A stretch of 64,000 nucleotides of DNA from Escherichia coli (lineage in GTDB: Bacteria; Pseudomonadota; Gammaproteobacteria; Enterobacterales; Enterobacteriaceae). The position numbers and the translations under genes are program-made. Positions 49,528 through 63,259 of the stretch are shown here, in pieces. The notes under the pieces are model-generated. The model was not told where the DNA came from and searched no databases. It was given only the letters and a program-made list of their open reading frames with translations. The stretch lies in the NCBI RefSeq assembly GCF_011045215.1, contig NZ_CP049201.1, one strand, 5' to 3'. Position 1 is the first letter of the stretch. The number at the start of each line of letters is the position of its first letter.

Positions 49528-49603
<76 letters not shown>

Positions 49604-49656
49604 GTTTAAAAGGCATCGGCGTCAGCGGATGTCTGGCTGAAAGGCCTGAAGAATTT

Positions 49657-49730
49657 GGCGCGTTAACAAAGCGGTTATGTAGCGGATTGCAAATCCGTCT
49701 AGTCCGGTTCGACTCCGGAACGCGCCTCCA
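49657..49730 (+). tRNA. cysT: tRNA-Cys (anticodon GCA)
   Basis: GGCGCGTTAACAAAGCGG...GATTGCAAATCC...CGCGCCTCCA. Confidence 0.92.
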
Positions 49731-49742
49731 CTTTCTTCCCGA

Positions 49743-49829
49743 GCCCGGATGGTGGAATCGGTAGACACAAGGGATTTAAAATCCCTCGGCGTTCGCGCTG
49801 TGCGGGTTCAAGTCCCGCTCCGGGTACCA
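49743..49829 (+). tRNA. leuZ: tRNA-Leu (anticodon TAA), long variable arm
   Basis: GCCCGGATGGTGGAATCGGTAGACACAAGGGATTTAAAATCCC...CCGGGTACCA. Confidence 0.92.
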
Positions 49830-49897: not shown

Positions 49898-49998
49898 TAT
49901 TTGTATTTTGAGCAATGGCGGTAGAGTGGCGGTGGTGTGGCGATATGCAGAAACAACAATGGTAGTGCACGTGCTGTTTAAGCTCTAAGGATGAAGCA

Positions 49999-50190
49999 GA
50001 ATTCTCCTGCAGCTCCTCCGTATTTCGCATAGTGAACCAAGACTTCGGTTAAACAAAATTTTTCTGGGATTTTTCCACTCGACTTCATTTTTCCTCCAGT
50101 CATCCACCAAAGGTACCTGCGCTAATCTATCTTTTTTAATCTGACAACATCCTGAGAAAAGGCAAATTCGTCAGATTTACTGTTTTTTCT
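49999..50190 (-). repeat. Degenerate hok/sok-like element lacking the hok ORF (paralogous to 50860-51230)
   Basis: Direct, ~70-75% similar blocks (ctccgtatttcgcatagtgaacc / cttcggttaaaca / ccaaaggtacctgcgctaatctatc / aggcaaattcgtcagatt) shared with the hok locus flanks; the ~120 bp carrying the hok CDS is absent. Confidence 0.55.
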
Positions 50191-50370
50191 ACTGCTTCGA
50201 ATGCCGATGTCTGCAGTACTGATAAGAGCTCTATCTCTTTGATATAGATCTTTTATTTGATGAATTGCTCGACATATTATCGTTATGACACCTTCTTGTT
50301 AAAGGTGTTGTACTCCACATCTCGATTTTATGATGTGGGTTATGATTGGTTAGTAATAGAGTGTATCGGT

Positions 50371-50652
50371 ATGCGATGTGGTTTATTAATGGCAATCTGC
50401 TTTTGTTTGGTATCTTTTAGTGGGTATGCAGCAACAGGAAAGTCTGATGTTCAGATCAAGAAAGAAATAATTAAAGAATCCATTGAATCATATCCAGGCA
50501 ATTGTGCGTGTCCTTATAATCATGCAAGGAATGGTAGTAGGTGTGGTGGACGCAGTGCATATAGCCGTACTGGAGGGTATGATGTGGTATGTTATGAGAG
50601 TGATGTTACTGATGAAATGATCCGGCAATGGAAGCAGGAGAATGCTGATTAA
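50371..50652 (+). CDS. Hypothetical small secreted Cys-rich protein
   Basis: ORF 50257..50652; likely start at ATG 50371 (MRCGLLMAICFCLVSFSGYAA signal-like N-terminus), ~70-aa mature part with four Cys; AT-rich; strong terminator downstream; family not recognised. Confidence 0.5.
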   Translation: MRCGLLMAICFCLVSFSGYAATGKSDVQIKKEIIKESIESYPGNCACPYNHARNGSRCGGRSAYSRTGGYDVVCYESDVTDEMIRQWKQENAD

Positions 50653-50730
50653 TTACTTTTGACTGGTTTGTTTTGCGAGCATTATGTGTGTTGTTAACGG
50701 TACCCTAGCTAAGTGAGAGTTCCAAAATAA

Positions 50731-50843: not shown

Positions 50844-50984
50844 TTACTGCTTACACTGTAAGAACGCCGCAAACTCCGCTCCCCAGAAGCTCATCCGTAT
50901 TTCACACAGCGAACCGTGCAGCATCCAGATGATGAGGATTACCGTCACGCAGAACGTGATGGCCGTAAGCGATTTTTGCGACAT
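50844..50984 (-). CDS. hok: Hok/Gef-family type I toxin (46 aa), below the ORF-track length cutoff
   Basis: Minus-strand translation MSQKSLTAITFCVTVILIIWMLHGSLCEIRMSFWGAEFAAFLQCKQ: single TM helix plus the Hok signature SLCEIR and AAFL tail (HokA-like). Confidence 0.8.
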   Translation of the reverse strand: MSQKSLTAITFCVTVILIIWMLHGSLCEIRMSFWGAEFAAFLQCKQ

Positions 50985-51165
50985 AGCGCTTGCTCCTTTT
51001 TAGGGGAGGCGCTAACCTATCACTTGCTAAGGTTAGATGGTTAGGGCCTCGGTTAAACAGGGATGTTTTCCGGGGCCTTTCCACATCTGGCCTTCGGGCA
51101 TACCCTCCGACCATCAGCCGAAAGGCACCCGCGCGTAATCTATCGTTTTTTTGTTGCTTCGGCAA
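50902..51165 (-). other. mok-like overlapping reading frame / hok mRNA leader; sok antisense RNA expected on + strand within ~51040-51120
   Basis: 87-codon frame overlapping the hok start in another frame, the arrangement of mok in hok/sok loci; sok position inferred, not demonstrated. Confidence 0.45.
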
Positions 51166-51174
51166 TTCTGCTCG

Positions 51175-51435
51175 TTAATTCTGAGGTAAAGGCAAACTCA
51201 TCTGATTGTTTCCCCTGTGTGACGTTGGCAGTTCATGCCACGGGATACCTTCTGAAGATCGAACGCCTGAGGTGTGTTTCGATGTGAATTTATGGAAAGC
51301 TTCCAGTGTTGAGAAGCATACGCCGCATTCCAGGTTGTTACACTGGTAATACTTTTGTCGGACGGTGTTTGAATCATTTTCCGGACGACTTGTGCGGATA
51401 CGGGCAGATGCGCCACAAAGCGGACAACGGAACAT
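51175..51435 (-). CDS. ogr: Ogr/Delta-family zinc-finger late transcription activator
   Basis: MFRCPLCG...ARIRTSR...YYQCNNLECG Cys4 pattern typical of P2 Ogr; AGGGAGG RBS. Confidence 0.85.
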   Translation of the reverse strand: MFRCPLCGASARIRTSRPENDSNTVRQKYYQCNNLECGVCFSTLEAFHKFTSKHTSGVRSSEGIPWHELPTSHRGNNQMSLPLPQN

Positions 51436-51611
51436 AGCAACCTCCCTTTAGGTGGTGCTATTCTAAATTTCATCAATGCAGATTCCAACTCCTTCCCACT
51501 TTAAGCGAAGGATGGTGATAAAGTCAGAAGATGTTAGATGAAATCTAAACGGGCGATAAGTTTTCCAATATTTGAATAACAACGTGGCAGGATTTTTGTT
51601 TATCAATTATC

Positions 51612-51629
51612 TTACACTTTTAAGTGTAA
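51612..51629. promoter_or_regulatory. Perfect palindrome TTACACTTTTAAGTGTAA (candidate operator) upstream of the cargo gene
   Basis: 8-bp inverted arms around a 2-bp centre, ~25-40 bp upstream of the cargo ORF start. Confidence 0.4.
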
Positions 51630-51654
51630 TAAATTTGTTAGTGATGACAATATT

Positions 51655-53077
51655 GTGAGAGGAGATTATCAATTGAAGATGGCAAAAAATAACAATGATA
51701 AAATGCGGGCAAAGTATAGGCCGTTCATAAATATATGGGAACATCTTCCTTCTGAGTTCAATGAACTCATCAAGACGTTAATGGTGCTGATACGGCAAGG
51801 GGAAAATGTGGGAGCTCAGCAAAGGGAGCTTGATTCCATCGAAAACTTCAAACACCTGTTAAGTGGATGGAAGCGGGCGCAAAGGATCATAGCTGATGAA
51901 CTCATTATCAGGCTTTCTCAAATCAAGGATCTGGAGTTAGAAAAGAATTGTGCCCATTCAAAAAAGGACTATGAAACAAAGAAGAAGTGTATACGCAATA
52001 TTGAAAGGACTAGACTAGAAATTAGGATTTTACGTAGGTGCATTGATTCAATTGTATGGGCGATATTCCGCAATGAACACTCGTCTATAAGACGTTTACC
52101 TATAAATAGAAATACTGACAATCTGACAATATTTAATATACATGATTCAATGGTGGTAGCAGATGAAATCAATGCTGATCCGATGGCTATAGCTGTTATC
52201 ACTGATATTACTACGTTTGTACATACTGGTGATTTACTTGCGTTAATACCTCAGCAAGGCATAACTTTAATTGAAATAAAAAGTGGTAAGAAAAATATAG
52301 AGTTTTCAAAGGCGGCTATGTTCTCAGTGCAAAGTAAATGTCTTCATTTTGATGAGATTTATAGAAAAGACCTTGATAAAAATGACTTGAAACACTATGA
52401 CAGAGCTAAGCGTCAACTTAAAAGAGCTCAAAATGTGATAGATGTCATTGAGACTGGTAAGGGATTTGATAACTTTTTTCAGTCTCAAGTAACAATTCAT
52501 GACAGAGATTTTTGTCCCGATTTTTATACAGATAAGATTATTGAGCTTTGGTATGAGATATATAACGGTAAAACTTGGGCGATTACTGACATTAATGATT
52601 GTTTATTCCTTGGGGCATATATTAATTCTAATATGGGTTTTTGCGGTTTTAATGGATGGATGGAGGTATCTAGAATATCGGGGAGAGTGGTTTAATATTC
52701 TTGATAGCTTTTCAGATGCTTTATCACGTCCATTTTTTAGTTTGAACCTACCTGATAAATTGCTTCTGGATATCATTAATGGCAATCTAATTGTTGTGCT
52801 GTGTTTCGATCATCGTCGTTTCGTAGAAAGAGCAAATAAAAAATACCCCGGGATTTATGAGTTATTGGATTTTCCATCTCCGAAGATTAATCCTATGAGT
52901 ATGCTTTCCATCAATGGGAAGGGGGTAGTTTCTAGTGTTGATGGACAGAGTGTTTTTATTGGAAATGGTTACGAAACTCGGATTATTTTTGATCAGCAAT
53001 ATCCAGATAGTCTGATTAAGTGGTCATACCATATGAGTGATCTCAAAAAAATATTGATAAAAAAAAGCGTAAAATGA
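51655..53077 (+). pseudogene. AT-rich prophage cargo gene of unknown family, apparently frameshifted (~470 aa if merged); PD-(D/E)xK-like motif
   Basis: ORFs 51655..52695 (frame 1) and 52499..53077 (frame 2) overlap; both have protein-like sequence outside the overlap; frame switch needed near the G-run at 52678-52690; motif VITDI...TGDLLAL...LIEIKSGKK. Confidence 0.55.
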
Positions 53078-53272
53078 AAAAGGAAACGCAAAGAAAAATA
53101 AAAGAGAAAAGAAAACGTAGCAGAAAACAATGCTTAAACTAACACATCTAATGCTTTAATTTGCTTTACTGTTACAATGTCCGCTTACTGGTACAGGGCG
53201 GACTGCCATATTAGATTTGGTTCTATCTCGTAAGAGTGGCCGTTCAGGTCTGCACTAATACATCTGAATGGT

Positions 53273-54382
53273 TCACTCTGTTTCTGCTATCCATTCCGGG
53301 ATTTTTGCTTCAAGCTCAAGCTGCGTGGTAAAGCCGCTGTTATCAATGGTGTGCTCGGCTTTTGCAATAATCCAGTCCTGATTATCAATCTCGCTTTTAA
53401 ATCCTGTTACCGTGCCATGCATTTCGGGGTAGAGTTCTGCGCGTCCGCGTGCCAGTGTGATGGAGAATGATGCGGCTCCGCGTTGTAGTTGTTGCCACTT
53501 TGCCGCCGCTGCGCGTCTTGCTGCCTGCTCGTTCTGATAAGTCTTGCGTAACACAAACACATTGCCTTCCGCGCCTTCCATATAATCACCTTCACGGCTG
53601 CTGCTTTTCTCTTTTTTCGGTTTTGGCGGTTTGCGGCGTTTCACGCTGACTTTTTTCTTTTTCCCGTAATTAAGATCAAGCCAGTAAGCGCGTACCCCCG
53701 TATACGCCTCGCGGTCAGCAATGCGGAACTGATGGCGATCGCCGCTGCTGCGTGTGATGGCGAACGAGGGCAACGGCTGGCCCTGTGCGTTCACGCCACC
53801 GCCGGGCATGATGAATAACAGATTACCGCTTTTTACCGTGGTGATTGCGCCCAGCATTTCCGCCATGCGCGTAAGGAAGGACATGTCACTTTCTTCGGTC
53901 TGGTCGGCGTGGTCGATTTCGATATCCATCAGCATTTCGCTGATTTGCGGTTTCAGACCGTACCGATGAGCGATGGCGGATACCACACGCTCAACGGTCA
54001 CATCATGCCAGGACATCTCACGTTTAACGTTAAATTCATCCCGAAAATCTGCGCTTCTGGCTGAAACAGTCAGCCTGTCCGGCGGTCCTTCGTGTGCGAT
54101 TTCATCAACAATGTAAGAGCCTTTTTCTGTCAGCGGTTCGCCTTTCCAGCCAATGAGAACCGTCAGGCGCGCGCCCCGTGGCGGTAGCCGCAACTGACCA
54201 TCCGCATCATCCAGCGTGATGGTGAGCTGGTCTGCCTCAAATCCCCGGTTGTCGGTCAGCGACAGGCTCATCAGGCGCTCTGCCACGCCGGACAGCGTTT
54301 TACCCTCCGCGAGAATATCAAAATCCGGCATTTTTACGGGGTCTGTGCCCTGACTGAGCAATTGCATGGTGGTGTCGGTCAT
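53273..54382 (-). CDS. P2 gpD-like tail protein (late control gene D homolog)
   Basis: Start at ATG 54382 (MTDTTMQLLSQ...) with GGGAGGG RBS; 369 aa; gpD-like. Confidence 0.8.
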   Translation of the reverse strand: MTDTTMQLLSQGTDPVKMPDFDILAEGKTLSGVAERLMSLSLTDNRGFEADQLTITLDDADGQLRLPPRGARLTVLIGWKGEPLTEKGSYIVDEIAHEGPPDRLTVSARSADFRDEFNVKREMSWHDVTVERVVSAIAHRYGLKPQISEMLMDIEIDHADQTEESDMSFLTRMAEMLGAITTVKSGNLLFIMPGGGVNAQGQPLPSFAITRSSGDRHQFRIADREAYTGVRAYWLDLNYGKKKKVSVKRRKPPKPKKEKSSSREGDYMEGAEGNVFVLRKTYQNEQAARRAAAAKWQQLQRGAASFSITLARGRAELYPEMHGTVTGFKSEIDNQDWIIAKAEHTIDNSGFTTQLELEAKIPEWIAETE

Positions 54383-54539
54383 CTGTTCCCTCCCTGTGCG
54401 GCATGGTCGCATGTGCGTGCGGAGGGGGTTACTGCTTTTTGTTGTCGCCGGGTCGGGAGAACGGCGCAGGGGTGAGATTACGCGCGTGGTGGGTGATGAT
54501 TGTTGCCGAATCATTTAACGGATACAAGGGGCTGAAGCT

Positions 54540-55724
54540 ATGAGTGAAACTCGTTTTCATGGTGCCCGTGTTACGGAAAATACCGACCTGGTAACAGCGA
54601 TTAACGATGTTGATTCCAGCGTTATCGGTATCGTGGCAACGGCGGATGATGCGGACGCGAAGCTGTTCCCGCTGAACAAGCCCACACTGCTGACCCGCGT
54701 CAATGACGTGCTGGGAAAATGCGGGACAACGGGGACGCTTTATCGTGCGCTTAAGGCCATCGCAGACCAGGTGAGCACAAAGGTGATCGTCGTTCGCGTG
54801 GCTGAACACAAAGAAGAAGACGGAAAAACGCAGGATCAACTGGTTATCGGTGGTTCTGAATCTGACGGCAGCTATACGGGGATGTATGCGCTGCTTGTTG
54901 CAGAGCAGGATGAAAGCATCGGATACCGTCCGCGTATTCTGGCCGCGCCGGAGCTGGACACGGAGGCGGTAACAAAATCCCTGTGCGTGATTGCGGGTAA
55001 ACTGCGCGCGTTTGTGTATGCCTCATGTCACGGCTGTAACACGATGGCTGAGGCGATTACCTACCGCCAGAAATTCAACGAACGTGAGGTGATGCTCTTA
55101 TGGCCGGACTTCATCGCCTACAACCCGAAAAGTGGCAAAAACGAAACGTTCCCCGCGCCTGCCTATGCGTGCGGCCTTCGTGCGTACATTGACCATGAGC
55201 AGGGATGGCACAAATCACTGTCCAACGTTCCGGTTAAAAATGTGCTGGGGATGTCGAGGCATGTGTTCTGGTCGTTGCAGGCCGAAGACAGCGATGCCAA
55301 CAGCCTCAACAACAAAGAAATCACGACCATTATTCGTCGCAACGGGTTCCGCTTCTGGGGCAACCGCACACCGGAAACGAACGCCTACATCTTTGAGGTG
55401 TATACCCGAACCGCACAGGTGCTGGCTGATTCAATTGCGGAAGCGCAGTTTGAAACCATCGACAGTCCATTAACACCCGCGAACGTGAAGGATGTTATCA
55501 GTGCCATCAGGGCAAAACTGGATTCGCTGGTTACTGCCGGGAAACTGATAGGCGCGGAGTGCTGGTATGACGTGGTGGATAACAGCACCACGGATTTACG
55601 TCAGGGACGTGTGCGTATTCGCTACAAATATACGCCCGTTCCGCCACTGGAAGACATGGAGCTTTACCAGACGTTTACTGATGAATACTTTGAACCCGCA
55701 TTTGCGGTGCTGGGAGGTGCCTGA
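54540..55724 (+). CDS. P2 FI-like contractile tail sheath protein
   Basis: 394 aa; blocks shared with P2 FI (FPLNKP, LRAF, WPDF, EQGWHK.LSNV, IRRNGFRFWGNRT, YTPVPPLE). Confidence 0.9.
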   Translation: MSETRFHGARVTENTDLVTAINDVDSSVIGIVATADDADAKLFPLNKPTLLTRVNDVLGKCGTTGTLYRALKAIADQVSTKVIVVRVAEHKEEDGKTQDQLVIGGSESDGSYTGMYALLVAEQDESIGYRPRILAAPELDTEAVTKSLCVIAGKLRAFVYASCHGCNTMAEAITYRQKFNEREVMLLWPDFIAYNPKSGKNETFPAPAYACGLRAYIDHEQGWHKSLSNVPVKNVLGMSRHVFWSLQAEDSDANSLNNKEITTIIRRNGFRFWGNRTPETNAYIFEVYTRTAQVLADSIAEAQFETIDSPLTPANVKDVISAIRAKLDSLVTAGKLIGAECWYDVVDNSTTDLRQGRVRIRYKYTPVPPLEDMELYQTFTDEYFEPAFAVLGGA

Positions 55725-56236
55725 TGGCTGTGCCAAAACATCTTCGCTTTTTTACGCTGTTTGTGGATGGTGAAAACGAAGTGGGTAAGGTGACGTCCGT
55801 CACTCTGCCTAAGCTGACGCGCAAAACCGACAGCTACCGGGGTGGCGGCATGATGGGTGCGGTAAGTATTGATCTCGGTCTGGACGACTCCGCGCTTGAT
55901 GCGAGCTTTGTCATGGGGGGCGCAGTTCGTGAGCTGTTCCTTAAGTATGGCGGCACGATTGACGGCACGCTGCTGCGTTTTGCGGGTGAATACTACACCG
56001 ATGCAGAAAGCGACCTGTATGAAGTCGAAATGCGCGGACGTGTGACGGAAATTGATATGGGGGAAGCCAAACAGGGCGAAGCCACATCACACACTTACGC
56101 CATTAAAAACACCTACTACAAGCTGAGTGTTAACGATCGCCCGTTGTGGGAGATTGACCTGCTGAACTTCATTTACCGGAAGGACGGCAAGGACATTGTG
56201 CCCGATCGCATCCGTTCCGCGCTTGGGCTTGGCTGA
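55724..56236 (+). CDS. P2 FII-like tail tube protein
   Basis: 170 aa directly after sheath gene. Confidence 0.85.
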   Translation: MAVPKHLRFFTLFVDGENEVGKVTSVTLPKLTRKTDSYRGGGMMGAVSIDLGLDDSALDASFVMGGAVRELFLKYGGTIDGTLLRFAGEYYTDAESDLYEVEMRGRVTEIDMGEAKQGEATSHTYAIKNTYYKLSVNDRPLWEIDLLNFIYRKDGKDIVPDRIRSALGLG

Positions 56237-56290
56237 TAAGTAATATGCAGGCGGCGCAGTGCGTCGCCTCTGACTGAAAGGAGTTTCCTG

Positions 56291-56656
56291 ATGAAAGAGA
56301 CGAAAAACATCGATACCGAAAACACGGTAGTTACTGACACTGTGAAAGAAACCAGTGAGCGTGGCGTAAAACTTACCCAACCAATTGAGCGAGGCGGCGA
56401 AAAAATCACGTATGTGGAGATCACCGGGGCTATTGAGCAGGCTGGATCTCTGCGAGATTTGTCGCTGTCTGATGTGCTGAATCTGAAAGCGGAATCCATG
56501 TTTACGCTGCTGTCACGCGTGACATCACCGCGACTGGATGAAGTGACGATCAAAAAAATGGCATCCCGTGACTTTATTCAGTTATGTGTGGTTGCCGTAA
56601 ATTTTTTGAGCGGTGCGGACTCTGGCGGGAAGAACGAACAGGCGACGGAAGCCTGA
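56291..56656 (+). CDS. P2 gpE-like tail assembly chaperone (E; E+E' by -1 frameshift)
   Basis: 121 aa; followed by overlapping E' frame 56584..56820. Confidence 0.8.
   Translation: MKETKNIDTENTVVTDTVKETSERGVKLTQPIERGGEKITYVEITGAIEQAGSLRDLSLSDVLNLKAESMFTLLSRVTSPRLDEVTIKKMASRDFIQLCVVAVNFLSGADSGGKNEQATEA
56602..56608 (+). promoter_or_regulatory. Programmed -1 ribosomal frameshift slippery site (T TTT TTG) for E+E' fusion
   Basis: Heptamer TTTTTTG inside gpE where the E' frame (56584..56820) opens; conserved recoding in P2-like tail chaperones. Confidence 0.7.
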
Positions 56657-56770
56657 TCACGGTTGTGTGCTTTGAGCACATAGAAGACTTTGTGGCGGAT
56701 ATTGCCGCCATTTTTAACTGGTCGCCCGCCGAAATCTTCATGATGACGCCCGGCGAAGTGGTTAGCTGGC

Positions 56771-59614
56771 GTGAGCGGGCGGCACTTCGCAGCGGGAATG
56801 CAGACAATGAAGACTCTTGATATCCGGGTCGCTTTCAGCGCCGTTGACAGGCTGACCCGGCCTGCCGAAAACGCCCGCCGCCTGATGGGGCAGTTTGGTG
56901 ACTCCATCCAGCGAACGCAGGGGGCGATCAAAAATCTCGAGCGTCAGGCGCGTTCATTTGAGCGCGCCCGTGACGCTGTCAGTAAAGCGGATGCTGGCAT
57001 ATTGAAAGCACGACGCCAGCTTAACGCCCTTAATCAGTTACAACGCACGGGTACAGTGCTCAGCGAAAAACAACAAAAGCTGATGCAGCAGTTAAGCACC
57101 CGGCTTGAACGCCTGAATGAATCGCGCACACGTGAAATTCAGAAAATGCGGGAGCTTGGCGGAGAGCTGAAACGCCACGGCATTTCCCTGACAGGCAGCG
57201 ATAACACCATCCAGCAGGCCATCAGACGCACCGAACAGTACAACAACCAGCTTGAACGCGAACGGCAGGCGCTTGCGCGTGTAACGCGGGCGCGTGAGCG
57301 GTATTCGCGCGCGCAGGAAACCGCGGGAAAACTGAAAACAGGTGGTGCGCTGGCAATTGGTGCGGCAGCGGCTGGCGGCTATGCTGCCGGGCGTTTTTTG
57401 CAGCCTGCGATCGGGTTCGGCAAAGAGATGTCCCGCGTTCAGGCACTGACGCGAATCGACAAAAACAGCCCGCAGTTTAAGGCGCTGCGTGAGCAGGCGT
57501 TAAAACTTGGCTCTGAAACACAGTTTACTGCGAGTGATGCCGCCAGTGGGCAGAGCTTTCTGGCAATGGCTGGTTTTACTCCGCAGTCCATTCAGGCCGC
57601 ATTGCCCGGTGTTCTTAATATGGCGCTGGCAGGTGGCGTCGAACTCGGCGAGACGGCTGATATAGGCTCCAATATCCTCACACAGTTCAACCTGACAGCC
57701 GATCAAATGGGCCGTGTTGGCGATACGCTGACAGCAGCATTCACCCGGACCAATACTGATTTACGCGCGCTGGGCGAAACCATGAAGTATACCGGTCCGG
57801 TTGCCGCAAAACTTGGTATCAGTCTTGAAGAAGCGGCAGCCATGGCCGGGATGCTTGCCAATAATGGTCTTCGTGGAAGCGATGCTGGTACGGCCATTCG
57901 CGCAAGTCTGTCCCGCCTTGCATCACCGCCAAAAGCTGCGGCTGATGCGCTGAAAGAGCTGGGGGTGTCAGTTGCTGACGCCAGAGGCAAAATGCGCCCG
58001 ATGGAGGATGTGCAGCTTGATCTCTACAAGGCGACACAAAAATACGCACAGGTGGACCAGGTTTCCTTCTTCAAGGACATCGCCGGAGAAGAGGCGTTCG
58101 TTGGTTTGCAGACGCTTGTTGCGGCGTCTGGTTCAGGAGAGCTGCAAAAACTGACCAGAGAATTGCAGGGGGCAAGGGGAGAGGCCGATCGCGTTGCAAA
58201 AGTAATGGCCGATAATCTTGATGGGGACCTGAAAAATCTCGACAGCGCATGGGAAGGTCTTCGTATTCGCATCAGTGATCTGGTTGACGGTCCGCTGCGT
58301 TCTGTCACGCAGTGGCTCACGCGGGGGCTTGAAAAAATCACCTCGCTGGCGCAGGCCCATCCGGTACTGACGCGCCAGCTACTGATAGCAGGCGGTGCGT
58401 TGCTGGCAATGACTGTAACGATTGGCTCGTTGTCGCTGGTTATTGGGGGGCTTTACGGGAAGCTGGCTACCTTGCGTCTTGGTTTTGACATTCTTACCCG
58501 GTCAATGAATGTCGTCAGGGTGTTGCCTGCGCTGTGGGGAATGGTGACGGGTTCCGTTTCTTTACTGGGAGGCGCTATCGGGGCGCTGTTCAGTCCGGTT
58601 GGTCTTATCGTGGCTGCGCTTGCCGGAGCTGCCGTTCTTATCTGGAAATACTGGGATCCCATCAGGGCATTTTTTGCAGGGGTGTTCAGCGGGATTATGG
58701 AAAGGCTGACCCCGTTGCGCGAAACCTTTGAACGGTTTGGTCCTGTTTTTGACGCAATCGGAAGCGGGATCAGCCAGGTGTTTAACTGGTTTAAATTGCT
58801 GCTGTCACCGATGGAGTCCAGCAAGGAAACGCTGGATAAATGCACCAGTGCTGGCGAGGTATTCGGTAACGTTCTTGGTGGCGCGTTACAGCTTGTTCTG
58901 ACGCCTGCAAAAATGCTGCTGGATACGCTGGCGTGGATACTTGAAAAACTCGGTGTGCTTCCGGATGAGGCGGAAAGGGCGCGTAAGAAAATCGAAGACG
59001 CACAGCGTGCGGCCATTCTTCAGGACAAGGTTGCCTTGCTTCAGGGGGATCTGGCGAAAATCAATCCGCCGAAGCCTGTGGAAAATGGCAATGGCACCGG
59101 AGGTGATAAACCCAAAGACAACAAACCGCTCACAGACAGCAATACCGGGACGCTACGCAGACTCAGCAAAATTGCTGATAACACAGGTAAGCTGGTTGAT
59201 GAGACGAAAAAACGCATTGGCCCCGGCGATATTGTCTTTAAGAACCTGCCCCGCGCACTTGCTGTTCGTGGGGAGTGGCAGGAGCGGAAGATTGCGCAGG
59301 TCAGTAAGCCTGCCCCCGCAATTAATATCACACCTGTGGTCCCGGCTCCGCTGCCTCCGACGCTGGTCCCTGTTGTTGCGGCCAGCTCCCGCCCGGTGGC
59401 GGAGTCCATACGATCTCCAGTGGCATCAGTTCCTGCAACTTCCCGTAACCGGGAGCCTGTTGCCTCCGGATTTGGCGGTGAAATTCATGTTCATCTGCAT
59501 AACGTTGTTACGCAGAATCCCCGCGAACTGGCGAAACTGGTCGGCGAAATGGTCAGTGCAGAAATGGAACGGCGCGCCCGTGCCAGGCGTGGCAGTTTTT
59601 ACGATAAAGATTGA
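56771..59614 (+). CDS. P2 gpT-like tail tape measure protein
   Basis: 947 aa, coiled-coil N-terminal part and hydrophobic Gly-rich central segments. Confidence 0.88.
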   Translation: MSGRHFAAGMQTMKTLDIRVAFSAVDRLTRPAENARRLMGQFGDSIQRTQGAIKNLERQARSFERARDAVSKADAGILKARRQLNALNQLQRTGTVLSEKQQKLMQQLSTRLERLNESRTREIQKMRELGGELKRHGISLTGSDNTIQQAIRRTEQYNNQLERERQALARVTRARERYSRAQETAGKLKTGGALAIGAAAAGGYAAGRFLQPAIGFGKEMSRVQALTRIDKNSPQFKALREQALKLGSETQFTASDAASGQSFLAMAGFTPQSIQAALPGVLNMALAGGVELGETADIGSNILTQFNLTADQMGRVGDTLTAAFTRTNTDLRALGETMKYTGPVAAKLGISLEEAAAMAGMLANNGLRGSDAGTAIRASLSRLASPPKAAADALKELGVSVADARGKMRPMEDVQLDLYKATQKYAQVDQVSFFKDIAGEEAFVGLQTLVAASGSGELQKLTRELQGARGEADRVAKVMADNLDGDLKNLDSAWEGLRIRISDLVDGPLRSVTQWLTRGLEKITSLAQAHPVLTRQLLIAGGALLAMTVTIGSLSLVIGGLYGKLATLRLGFDILTRSMNVVRVLPALWGMVTGSVSLLGGAIGALFSPVGLIVAALAGAAVLIWKYWDPIRAFFAGVFSGIMERLTPLRETFERFGPVFDAIGSGISQVFNWFKLLLSPMESSKETLDKCTSAGEVFGNVLGGALQLVLTPAKMLLDTLAWILEKLGVLPDEAERARKKIEDAQRAAILQDKVALLQGDLAKINPPKPVENGNGTGGDKPKDNKPLTDSNTGTLRRLSKIADNTGKLVDETKKRIGPGDIVFKNLPRALAVRGEWQERKIAQVSKPAPAINITPVVPAPLPPTLVPVVAASSRPVAESIRSPVASVPATSRNREPVASGFGGEIHVHLHNVVTQNPRELAKLVGEMVSAEMERRARARRGSFYDKD

Positions 59615-59620
59615 GGAGTC

Positions 59621-60115
59621 ATGGCCATGATGATGATCTATGGCATGTTTGTTTTTGAGCTGCGCACACTGCCACATCAGCAGTTACAGCAAAACAAAAG
59701 CTGGCGGCATGTGAAAAATGAACGCGTTAACCGTTCAGCAAGCTGGCAGTATATCGGTGCAGGTGATGATCGCATCGTTCTTTCCGGCGTGCTTTATCCT
59801 GAAATTACAGGTGGTGAAGTGTCGCTGTCGCTGCTGACCACGCAGGCATATACAGGGCGGCCCTGGCCTCTGATTGATGGTGTCGGGCAGATTTACGGCA
59901 TGTATGTCCTGACCGGAACGAATACGACCCGCTCCGAGTTTGATCGCTACGGTAAGGCGAAAAAAATAGAATTTTCACTGACCCTTGAACGCTGTGATGA
60001 GGATTTGCGGGAGCGCCTGCAATCCTCATCGTTCAGCGATATGCTGTCCGGCTTCAAAGATAAGGTGACATCATCCCTTAACAGCGCGGCCAGTTCAGTT
60101 AAAGGACTGTTCTGA
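59621..60115 (+). CDS. P2 gpU-like tail protein
   Basis: 164 aa directly after tape measure gene. Confidence 0.8.
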   Translation: MAMMMIYGMFVFELRTLPHQQLQQNKSWRHVKNERVNRSASWQYIGAGDDRIVLSGVLYPEITGGEVSLSLLTTQAYTGRPWPLIDGVGQIYGMYVLTGTNTTRSEFDRYGKAKKIEFSLTLERCDEDLRERLQSSSFSDMLSGFKDKVTSSLNSAASSVKGLF

Positions 60116-60211
60116 TTTTACATTGCCGCCGATACCCTCATATTGGGTAATGGGCGGCTTGTTGTTATATAATATATCGTAGGTCCTGATAAAACTGTTG
60201 AGGTTTCTACT

Positions 60212-61450
60212 TTATAAAGAATTGCTACTTTCTAATTCTGGGTTTCTGGATCTATTTTTACAACCTAAATCCGAGTGGTAATTCGGTATATCGTTTGTCA
60301 AATCTTGTTTGATAGCATTAATTAAGATCATTATGTCGAATTTATGCATATCGTCGCCCCCTTCAGACCTTAGATGTTCGGATGTGGTGAGTTGAGTCGC
60401 TAATTTGCTGTTTGGCCCCCACACAATATTGTTTTCGAATTTTCCTTCATGCATTCTGTTATTATATATACAGTATTGTCTAATGTTTAATCCACTGGCT
60501 AAATGTACAATAGCAGTATCTACAGTTATAACAAAATCAGCATGGCGAACCAATGCAAATGAACATCCGGCATCAGAAAATGGAGATAGAGACACATTAT
60601 CCAATCCATTGTGATTAATCTGTTCTCCCATATTAAAAACTATTGTGTGATATCCCTTAAGGTTATTAAGGTAAGCTAGTACTTTGTTTATCTGTTCATC
60701 AGATAATGTTCTGCTATTCTGAGAACCATAAGGGTTAAATATAACTAATTTTTTGTTTTTCTTCCTGAATTCATTTGCAACAATATTTGCTGGTTCATAT
60801 ATTTTGTTGTCAAAATTAAGCGCTGCAGCATAATTATTATTTTTTATCTTTAGTAAAGATAAAACTTTTTTCATTCTTTCAGATGTGTGAATGGAACGAT
60901 TATCGATTATATTTGTATCAAAAATAGTTACGGCAGGATGATTAAAACAGATAGAGTGTTTAGGTCTAAGTAAATGTAGTGTTTGCAATCTGGTTATCGC
61001 TGTGTTATCAAAATTTGAGAAGTCAACAACAAGATCTACATTCAGTTTTTTTATCTTTGCTTTTAGTTCGTTAAATTTATTTTTCTCGTAAGATATAAAG
61101 GCATCCACGCCAACAATATCAGTAAAGAGGAATGATACTCTTGAAGGTGCTATCACATATACCACCATACCGGATTTTTGAAGTTGTTTAATAAACCCTG
61201 AGGTAACGATGCCGTCACCAATGGCTTGCATGTGCATGAAAATGCACACTGTTTTATAACTATCCGGCTGTAATGATGTTTTCCTTCTGTATCGCATTTT
61301 TAGAAATGCCAGTCTGGCCTTCGTCTTTATCTTTTTTGTTTTAATATTTCGCTCTCTGTTAAGCTGTTTTAATGATGAAATAACATTCATAATGGTACCC
61401 TGAAAATCCAAATCACACATGTCATCCGAAATGAGCAGGATACTATACAA
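60212..61450 (-). CDS. Glycosyltransferase family 9 (ADP-heptose:LPS heptosyltransferase-like) cargo gene, AT-rich
   Basis: 412 aa; GT9-like N-terminal motif CIFMHMQAIGDGIVTSGFIKQL and C-terminal HADFVITVDTAIVHLASGLNIRQYCIY; sits between tail-fibre-assembly G and tail genes (Z/fun position); start may be internal. Confidence 0.7.
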   Translation of the reverse strand: MYSILLISDDMCDLDFQGTIMNVISSLKQLNRERNIKTKKIKTKARLAFLKMRYRRKTSLQPDSYKTVCIFMHMQAIGDGIVTSGFIKQLQKSGMVVYVIAPSRVSFLFTDIVGVDAFISYEKNKFNELKAKIKKLNVDLVVDFSNFDNTAITRLQTLHLLRPKHSICFNHPAVTIFDTNIIDNRSIHTSERMKKVLSLLKIKNNNYAAALNFDNKIYEPANIVANEFRKKNKKLVIFNPYGSQNSRTLSDEQINKVLAYLNNLKGYHTIVFNMGEQINHNGLDNVSLSPFSDAGCSFALVRHADFVITVDTAIVHLASGLNIRQYCIYNNRMHEGKFENNIVWGPNSKLATQLTTSEHLRSEGGDDMHKFDIMILINAIKQDLTNDIPNYHSDLGCKNRSRNPELESSNSL

Positions 61451-61484
61451 AAAACTGGACTACAATGGTTTGAAATGAAAGCCT

Positions 61485-62084
61485 TTATGCTTGTTTACTC
61501 CTTGATTCCACTGGGGAAGCAGGCCACTCAATATCCGGTGCTCTTGATGTATCAACACGGTTCAGCAGCACTCGATACTTCTTCCATGCCACCAGTAACG
61601 ATGTTTCTTCCTCTGTTGCAATATTCAAATCTACGGCATCTTGAAGTGGCGAAATATGCTCACTGGCTACCTGCATGAGGCTGTTTTTTGTTTCTTCCGC
61701 CTCCCGTATCCGGAACACTTTTTCTGCTTCTGCATCTTTCACCCACGTTGTGCCGTTCCACTTCTGAAACTCCCCTTCCGGGGATAACCAGGTGACATTT
61801 TCCGGTAATGGACCGAGTTCAGAAATAAATAACGCGCCCCCTGATGCCACGTCATAAACCGTTTTACCACGATGATCTTCAACGAGATGCCAGGACGTCT
61901 TATCACTGTTGAAAATAGCCACGAAGCCAGCTGGAATATCTGGCGGAGAAATATCAGTACTATTTGCAGGTAGACCTGTATGAGGTGGAATGTATGCATC
62001 ACCTTCACCAATAAATTCATTGGTTCCGACCAGCAGATTATAAATTTTTATGGTTCGTGGTTGTTCACTCATTCTGAATGCCAT
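61485..62084 (-). CDS. Tail fibre assembly protein (P2 gpG/Tfa-like)
   Basis: 199 aa; start overlaps stop of tail fibre gene. Confidence 0.85.
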
Positions 62085-63259
62085 TATGCAAGCCTCACAA
62101 TATAGTTAAATGCGATGTTTTTTACGGTGTTTTCCGCGTTGCCATAAGCGGCAATGGTAATGGTGTGTGTGTGCGAACCAATAGCGAGCGTATGTGTATG
62201 CGCACCTATTGCTACTGTGTGAGTATGAGCTCCTGCGCTTAATACGCGATTACTTGCTGTCTTGCTTGTGTTAGTTGCATGCATTCCACCACCGGTACCG
62301 GGAGTTTCTGCGTATGCTGAAGTATTGTTGTAAGCAAAGTTGTGTGTATGTGCTCCGGTGTTATTTGTGGATTTAGTTCCGTAATCAAACGACGATGTGG
62401 TTTTCGTCCCCAAATCCGTACTGGATGCGCTGGCGCTGTGGGTGTGCGATTTAATGCCGTCCTGTTCCTGAGACAATACGGCTCGACCACTGGCTGGTTT
62501 GCCCTTAATCGTCCAGCCACGCATATCAGGGATCACGCCTGACGGATAAGCGGCTGCAAGTTTCGGGTATGCAGATTTGTCAAAAGTCTGCCCCTGCATC
62601 AGGGCATAACCAGACGGAACGGTATCTGATGGCCACGGGATTGGTGCGCCAGGCGGATAAAACTGCTCTGATGGCGTATAGAGTGAATAAACTGTACCGT
62701 CCGTTAACCCTTCCGGCTTATTAGCAGAATATGCTGGTGACGTATGAATCGTCACGCTGGCATTACTGGTATAATCCCATTGAATATTTACACCAGTCGC
62801 ATAATTTCCGATTGCAACGTAAATATCGTAAGTATCACCAGATGTATTGACCCAGGCAAAATTTGTAAACCCTGTCGATGTGCGCTGCCATAAAGCACCA
62901 GTAATCCCCTTCGGATTACCATTACCTGCACGCAAAACAAGTTCAGATATACCTGCCTGTTGAGGTGAACCGACGTTATATCCAGCCCCACCAATCAACG
63001 TAATTGAAACAACAGAACTCGCCTGCGGCATGGTTACCGTTGCTAATTTGAACCAACCAGCACCACCGCTAAATGACATAGTTGTTGAGTTAAGCGTACC
63101 AATATCTTTCGGTGTCAGTGTTATATCCGCTGAAAGCGCCTTACCATTCACCTTACGGGCAGAAGGTACGGTCTGGCAAGAGCCGCCCGGCAAACGTCCT
63201 GGCATCAGTCTGCGCTTTACTTTAAGCGCAATGTATTGCTCGGTTGCTACATCCCGCAC
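62084..63259 (-). CDS. Tail fibre protein, C-terminal part of gpH-like protein (5'-truncated, fused at a deletion junction)
   Basis: C-terminal repeats [30 protein letters not shown] typical of enterobacterial phage tail fibres; N-terminal ~35 aa of the ORF is antisense read-through of the portal fragment. Confidence 0.7.

Follow-up and report, generated by a model that had tools for sequence, protein, structure and literature searches.

The window analysed here, a stretch of 64,000 nucleotides from the Escherichia coli contig NZ_CP049201.1 (assembly GCF_011045215.1), contains one end of a P2-like prophage in which an AT-rich gene lies between ogr and gpD. We regard it as reasonably probable that this copy is the pseudogenised form of a single-gene candidate anti-phage defence nuclease from an uncharacterised family. 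A role in anti-phage defence is probable because the family recurs in hotspots of phages and of defence islands; both this role and the activation logic proposed below are suggested by genomic context, i.e. by guilt by association.

An AT-rich insert with one disrupted gene

Between the minus-strand genes gpD and ogr, two overlapping open reading frames (ORFs) are present on the plus strand, 51655..52695 (346 aa) and 52499..53077 (192 aa), just as a prediction made from the sequence alone (the original prediction) had described. Their much lower GC content, which it had also noted, was found again: 0.32-0.40 over 51450-53250 versus 0.50-0.57 in gpD and the tail genes, or 35% in the insert versus ~52% in the flanks. 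The size of the insert had been put too low, at 1.4 kb. Comparison with the empty ogr/gpD junction of CP029981 (L015) set its ends and gave ~1.8 kb, with the left end just past the ribosome-binding site of ogr and the right end at the gpD stop codon. When the ogr side was fused directly to the gpD side and this query was searched in E. coli genomes, it was contiguous in ~760 of them, where only ~42 nt separate gpD and ogr; the junction is therefore normally empty in E. coli. The filled interval of 1837 bp was searched by megablast in 5426 complete E. coli genomes, which yielded 16 full-length and 3 partial copies, all at one locus and with an identity of 99.4-99.6%. An unrelated AT-rich cargo of ~1 kb, coding for a 221-aa protein, occupies the same junction in at least two other strains. 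Thus, cargo at this minor site is variable, and at least two alternatives exist. The alternative cargo lies at 1934-2942 of L014 (NZ_CP027342.1), has 38% GC and is also present in NZ_CP100906.1; its product, WP_001057121.1, has an N-terminal hydrophobic helix and gave no meaningful match in PADLOC or NCBIfam.

In the genomes with the filled interval, intact alleles are annotated in RefSeq as one gene encoding 487 aa (WP_038820202.1) or 465 aa (WP_001107526.1). They bear out the earlier view that both ORFs are parts of one gene of ~470 aa, and the indel indeed lies within 52670-52695; the split had been placed near the G-run at 52678-52690, which is correct. In the alignment with the intact loci L001 and L002, the window has GAGTGGTTT where the intact alleles have GAGTGTTT, that is, one additional G at 52688/52689, which falls in a GG pair and not in the GGGG run at 52681-52684. 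The reading frame is therefore moved and runs into a stop at 52693-52695, which cuts the protein after residue ~337 and removes its C-terminal domain. Translation probably starts at TTG 51673, 8 nt downstream of AGGAG (51660-51664), or at ATG 51679, and the 5' part codes for an N-terminal helical hairpin, the predicted nuclease core and the beginning of the C-terminal domain. The residues encoded by the 3' part agree with the intact protein from FNILDSFSDALSRPFF onward, and this part itself stops early, at 53075-53077, owing to an A7 tract.

The broken gene is not confined to the window. Public proteins of 338 or 340 aa ending in ...SRISGRVV are identical to the product of the 5' part, and these truncated products or a 181-aa fragment are recorded in at least 35 isolate and metagenome assemblies. 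Nine frameshift loci were compared, and all of them have the G insertion and five linked single-nucleotide polymorphisms (SNPs) in common with the window; three of the five lie in coding sequence and all three are synonymous. Since the same insertion and linked SNPs occur in at least 35 assemblies, the frameshift is an inherited mutation and not a read error, and since the distinguishing coding SNPs are synonymous, the break is recent. Judged by its sequence, the copy in the window is a recent, inactivated pseudogene. The original prediction had offered a real mutation, a sequencing error and recoding as causes, and only the first of these held. That the split is no defect, either because it is a sequencing or assembly error or because programmed +1 recoding leads to the full-length protein, is exceedingly improbable: if the extra G at GTG-G-TTT were skipped, exactly the wild-type sequence would result, and a zero-frame stop codon follows directly, but the insertion recurs with its five linked SNPs in independent assemblies, intact relatives in E. 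coli and every other genus are unshifted, and inspection of the sequence revealed no RF2-type motif, slippery or Shine-Dalgarno-stimulated, at the site. No frame shift was seen in the alignment of the other E. coli alleles and the homologues of other genera.

A second kind of variation affects the 3' end of the gene. Both poly-A tracts in the tail differ by one base among E. coli copies, and the 465-, 479- and 487-aa forms exist because of this length variation. The 487-aa allele ends in ...KRKRSRKQCLN, a basic tail that is conserved in Enterobacterales homologues and, in the window, is taken away by the loss of 1 nt in a poly-A tract; the commonest allele on record is the tail-less 465-aa form (80 contigs). 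The variation may reflect switching of the phase-variation kind or plain decay. The A7 at 53038-53044, in place of A8, was found in the window only, compared with the nine frameshift-haplotype loci and the intact alleles, and could be a homopolymer error.

A conserved family with a predicted nuclease core

The intact protein had no match in Pfam, NCBIfam, PADLOC, PHROGs or PDB sequences, and PDB sequence searches with two profiles gave nothing meaningful. Clustered at 90% identity, the relatives from Enterobacterales, Aeromonas and Pseudomonas fall into 34-48 groups; they are about 460-500 aa long, and every one is labelled 'hypothetical'. An exhaustive phmmer search of 1.84 billion representatives returned 470 proteins at E <= 1e-3, typically of ~450 aa, and Foldseek against AFDB50 returned 150 relatives at E <= 1e-3, nearly all named 'Uncharacterized protein', which span Proteobacteria, Bacteroidota, Firmicutes, Myxococcota and a CPR bacterium. 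A profile of the core alignment, run against a set of 5.8 billion proteins, retrieved only more unannotated members and no Pfam-annotated distant relatives. Full-text literature searches with the RefSeq accessions of the family found no paper, and the systems newly named in a 2026 preprint on P2/P4 gave no match to the cargo protein in a comparison by text descriptions only. From these comparisons of sequences, the family is real and conserved, unnamed and uncharacterised. In 36 members, down to ~20% identity, the residues W127, D176, D185, E199, K201, G203, R242, Q246 and P442 are invariant.

Some relatives are longer. P0109, P0127 and P0130 (about 670-680 aa; locus L011) have an extra N-terminal domain of ~250 aa that starts with GILAYGSLIDDPG; this domain of the Bacteroidota members had no match in Pfam, PDB or NCBIfam and perhaps serves as an additional module for sensing or as an effector.

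The cargo protein was modelled with good confidence by AlphaFold2 from a 22-sequence alignment (pLDDT 87, pTM 0.85). The N-terminal part of the model is a long helical hairpin (residues 53-129), the core consists of helix 151-165, strands 171-174, 186-190 and 194-198 and helix 204-219, and the C-terminal part is a second alpha/beta domain (about 260-450) followed by a basic helix (454-486). In the canonical PD-(D/E)xK arrangement, strand 2 begins with the Asp and strand 3 contains ExK. In the model, G184-D185 is placed just before strand 186-190 and E199-x-K201 directly after strand 194-198, with R242 and Q246 on further helices, and the order of the predicted core elements is that of PD-(D/E)xK nucleases (alpha-beta-beta-beta-alpha-beta). 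The D...D...ExK spacing recognised in the original prediction corresponds to D176, D185, E199 and K201, and the catalytic D ... (D/E)-x-K signature is represented family-wide in the 36 relatives by D185 and E199-x-K201. Structural comparison gave weak fold matches: ~17 of the top 60 had the restriction-endonuclease fold, typically with ~70 residues aligned at 13-17% identity, namely AF1548, VRR-NUC, DUF820, NucS, EcoRI, three Hjc resolvases, FAN1, N.BspD6I, Can2, Cdn1, Upx, Hna and a RAP domain. Nucleotidyltransferase and class II aminoacyl-tRNA synthetase-like matches reached a comparable Z; their probable source is the C-terminal alpha/beta domain, which has no clear solved structural neighbour. 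Taken together, a nuclease fold is likely in the cargo protein, and the motif, the predicted topology and the weak fold matches suggest nuclease activity; catalysis is supported because the full D/D/ExK/Q set is invariant over relatives of ~20% identity. The assignment as a HEPN protein, which came from one AFDB annotation, was rejected: a conserved Rx4-6H motif is missing, and distant members do not retain H134.

Mobility and genomic company of the family

Homologues were found, alone, at five or more different positions of P2-like phages. Besides ogr/gpD in E. coli, they lie between gpU and the tail fibre gene in Raoultella prophages, between gpV and gpS in Enterobacter-type P2-like prophages (five loci), directly beside the portal gene gpQ in the classical old/tin hotspot (PMC9122126), and directly after a P2-type integrase or another integrase. 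Further homologues are located at a Klebsiella prophage end immediately after AbiH, on plasmids of Rahnella and Pantoea, and in integrase-bounded islands of Dickeya, Myxococcota and a metagenome; 28 IMG/VR viral contigs carry a relative. Among ten immediate neighbours scanned with PADLOC, five matched defence or candidate-defence models (AbiH, DUF4238-Pers, PDC-S19, SoFic and PDC-S26), and Mrr_cat is present in a Myxococcota island with a homologue. DUF4238 is a single-protein defence system from a P2 hotspot that was validated by experiment (PMC9122126). In published surveys, the same P2 positions are described as hotspots rich in defence cargo, and for many unannotated genes there an antiviral role was predicted or shown (10.1101/2024.10.15.618418; 10.64898/2026.02.27.708500). 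Like defence systems in general, the family is sporadic and accessory and is found in hotspots and islands beside defence genes. The profile of a defence or abortive-infection cargo, already assigned in the original prediction, agrees with the empty site in ~760 E. coli genomes and with the homologues in P2 hotspots and defence islands. The parts of the original interpretation that were open to a check in silico all held. The observations that had been named there as contrary evidence, i.e. homology to a structural or housekeeping protein, absence of a nuclease fold or occurrence at non-mobile loci with a known function, were not made in any of the three cases.

A conserved partner gene was considered and rejected: the upstream neighbour changes with the context (AbiH, an integrase, PDC-S19 or none). 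Since no partner is conserved across contexts, the gene appears to act alone. A subfamily of ~50% identity (463-465 aa; 724 member sequences) has AbiH always 84-90 nt upstream on the same strand, at Klebsiella-type prophage ends (loci L025-L029, L036-L041, L050 and L051); the pair may work jointly or may simply be inherited together.

A predicted nuclease whose gene is inserted exactly between conserved genes of a phage, and whose site is found empty elsewhere, could also be a selfish free-standing endonuclease of the homing type, which would cut the cognate empty sites in related phages and be copied in without benefit to the host. The tendency of subfamilies to own sites (ogr/gpD, gpU/fibre, gpV/gpS) and their sporadic, AT-rich nature fit this explanation. 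We consider it very unlikely. With 450-490 aa and with helical and C-terminal domains, the proteins are unlike known homing endonucleases, whose compact size is exceeded by the cargo protein (465-487 aa, three extra domains), and profiles of known homing endonucleases (LAGLIDADG, GIY-YIG, HNH, His-Cys and EDxHD/PD-(D/E)xK) found no matches. Furthermore, the family is also present in non-phage integrase islands and on plasmids, beside AbiH, DUF4238, SoFic and PDC genes, with no homing target evident, and because unrelated cargo occupies the same ogr/gpD site, a generic recombination hotspot is indicated rather than site-specific homing.

The company of other genes bears on two further explanations. 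No methyltransferase was found in the contexts examined, and a nuclease that is solitary in this way could be a modification-dependent restriction enzyme of the Type IV-like kind, acting constitutively on phage-modified DNA and not by infection-triggered or abortive action; its conserved non-catalytic C-terminal domain could then read DNA. The gene is prophage-borne, and known prophage exclusion genes target T-even phages (PMC9122126). This explanation seems to us quite unlikely. An accessory function outside defence, for instance in DNA repair or recombination, in lysogenic conversion or for the benefit of the phage, or else a catalytically dead PD-(D/E)xK-like scaffold, is unlikely as well, to a lesser degree. 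Hotspot cargo is not always defensive (10.1101/2024.10.15.618418; PMC9122126), the fold matches are weak, and some homologues have neighbours connected with DNA damage, a UmuDC-like IMS and SRAP. Yet the invariance of D/D/ExK/Q speaks for catalysis, the gene is dispensable for the prophage, as the empty site in ~760 genomes demonstrates, and its relatives are placed recurrently in defence hotspots and beside neighbours that match defence models.

Several observations weigh against the candidate defence nuclease that we favour. Many prophage morons are not defence genes. None of 36 members matched a Pfam nuclease family, none of the query and 13 relatives matched a PADLOC defence model, and hhalign with a PDDEXK_4 neighbour protein from Dickeya was not significant. 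In addition, selection in E. coli appears weak because the gene is often degraded there: the allele recorded most often (465 aa) has no tail, and a sizeable fraction of the copies is frameshifted.

Proposed mechanism and closest known systems

The insert is best explained as a single-gene cassette that was acquired horizontally and dropped into the ogr/gpD junction of the P2-like prophage. Its intact product of ~487 aa comprises the hairpin (~53-129), a predicted PD-(D/E)xK core (~150-260) with D176, D185, E199-x-K201, R242 and Q246 as core residues, the conserved alpha/beta domain (~260-450) and, in Enterobacterales members, a Lys/Arg-rich terminal helix. If the gene is a defence nuclease, prophages and islands would carry it and the lysogen would benefit. 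The non-catalytic domains would hold the nuclease inactive until a cue of infection is sensed, and the Mg-dependent core would then cut DNA, which may be that of the invader or also that of the cell, as in abortive infection.

Shedu (SduA, DUF4263) is the closest analogue for the probable working of the cargo gene. It is likewise a one-gene system of ~400-500 aa with a PD-(D/E)xK core, on whose flanks lie non-catalytic regions for regulation or sensing, and it also occurs in defence islands and mobile elements. However, there is no relationship in sequence: Pfam DUF4263 was not matched by the cargo family, and the sole match to the SduA model (E 0.039) came from one distant member, in an N-terminal stretch that is unrelated. 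The domain order differs as well, since the nuclease is central in the cargo protein, with the helical hairpin before and the alpha/beta domain after it. A second comparison is offered by the Cap4/LmuA/HerA-associated DUF4297 (PF14130), a PD-(D/E)xK effector domain of anti-phage systems. A single AFDB50 relative, A0A1F9DCY9 (E 1.7e-15; TM 0.72 across the entire core), bears the annotation of a Cap4-like DNA endonuclease domain and is the only link to these profiles. In overall size (~450-490 aa, made up of the nuclease and another alpha/beta domain) the cargo protein resembles Cap4. PF14130 and the PADLOC models for Cap4 and LmuA were not matched by the query or 46 relatives, and no partner gene for a CD-NTase, LmuB/SMC or HerA was found in at least 12 distinct genomic contexts. 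In its way of life the cargo gene resembles the known P2 cargo (old, tin, Z/fun; DUF4238, PD-T4/PD-T7), which likewise consists of opposite-strand or autonomous low-GC morons that are sporadic and swappable, and homologues share the gpA-gpQ, fibre-adjacent and int-adjacent hotspots with it (PMC9122126; 10.1101/2024.10.15.618418; 10.64898/2026.02.27.708500). The cargo family is unrelated to any of these proteins, and the main P2 hotspots as described do not include ogr/gpD; the great majority of the P2-like prophages of E. coli have no insert there.

Other features of the region

The features of the insert and its flanks are given in Table 1. The element at 51612-51629, which had been called a perfect palindrome, turned out to be an 8-nt inverted repeat (arms 51612-51619 and 51622-51629) around a TT centre that is not self-complementary. 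When the whole region was shuffled by dinucleotides, 31% of the shuffled sequences contained an equally good repeat; when the 243-nt upstream stretch was shuffled, 5% did. The homologues in Raoultella, Enterobacter, Dickeya and Pseudomonas lack the repeat in their upstream sequence. As a conserved operator it was therefore rejected, being absent from other genera and at most marginally beyond chance. It may overlap a promoter; a convincing promoter or terminator consensus was not found in the region, nor was an Rfam family.

Table 1 Features of the ogr/gpD interval and its flanks (window coordinates)
Feature	Position	Strand	Basis or remark
ogr/Delta zinc-finger late-gene activator (left flank)	51175..51435	-	PHROG 603; Pfam Ogr_Delta in identical loci
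AT-rich cargo insert, ~1.8 kb, 35% GC	about 51467..53269		comparison with empty junction
8-nt inverted repeat TTACACTT-TT-AAGTGTAA	51612..51629		50-67 nt upstream of ATG
5' part of disrupted gene	51673..52695	+	ends at premature TAA 52693-52695
Codons of predicted catalytic segment D176 ... G184-D185 ... E199-x-K201 (TDITTFVHTGD ... IEIKSG)	52204..52281	+	invariant columns; model
1-nt insertion site (GG here, G in intact alleles)	52688..52689	+	alignment with L001/L002 and nine frameshift-haplotype loci
3' part, +1 frame relative to 5' part, C-terminal alpha/beta domain	52690..53077	+	ORF list, alignment
Two poly-A tracts	53038..53059	+	53038-53044 A7 here, A8 elsewhere; 53052-53059 A8
Remnant of Lys/Arg-rich C-terminal tail coding sequence, out of frame here	53078..53142	+	ancestral stop TAA 53140-53142
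gpD tail protein (late control D; right flank)	53273..54382	-	PHROG 52; Pfam Phage_GPD

The window runs from the chromosomal genes uvrC and pgsA and tRNA-Gly/Cys/Leu (49528-49829) into the end of the P2-like prophage. The insert pushes ogr and gpD 1.8 kb apart (edges 51436-51466 and 53262-53272). If ogr has a promoter within the 3' part of gpD, it would therefore be displaced, as would transcription that reads through from the late tail operon; this could affect late-gene activation in the prophage. Short similar motifs at the ends of the insert (ATTCTAA / ATCTGAA) may mark a recombination site. In several RefSeq genomes with an intact cargo gene, gpD is annotated in shortened form (266 aa; L001 7838-8691) together with a pseudogene fragment, whereas it is full-length (369 aa) in the window and in the frameshift-haplotype loci.

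The genes of the tail module, FI-FII-E-T-U (54540..60115), are read from the plus strand, with gpD and ogr on one side and the fibre and baseplate genes (60212..63259) on the far side, both on the minus strand. The module is thus inverted relative to the classical P2 order (window 53273-63259); since the Raoultella prophages L006-L009 are arranged alike, this is a feature of the lineage and not an assembly artefact. A second AT-rich patch (49950-50700, GC 0.37-0.40) between tRNA-Leu and a hok-like gene has a plus-strand ORF (50257/50371..50652) for a small Cys-rich protein, annotated with 93 aa in relatives (WP_071589622.1); it had no match in PADLOC or NCBIfam and may be another cargo gene of the prophage end. 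Just outside ogr lies an ORF for a Hok/Gef-family toxin, with minus-strand features at 50844..50984 and 50996-51130, and an accompanying match to the sok antitoxin RNA that is below the Rfam threshold (40.7 bits versus a gathering score of 59). Together, these have the appearance of a type I toxin-antitoxin module located where the prophage ends.

Significance

The novelty of the gene is moderate: it is a new, unannotated member of a well-known kind, the single-gene nuclease cargo carried by prophages, and it is present here in a broken copy. For the source genome, one disrupted gene should be annotated in place of two hypothetical proteins. P2-like prophages accept cargo at minor sites such as ogr/gpD and gpV/gpS, beyond the two or three hotspots usually mined. 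The family is wholly missed by the present annotation sources Pfam, NCBIfam, PADLOC and PHROGs. If the repaired gene protects against phages, a broadly distributed single-gene nuclease system would join the defence catalogue, and it would give access to an alpha/beta domain without a close solved neighbour, which may be the sensor of infection.

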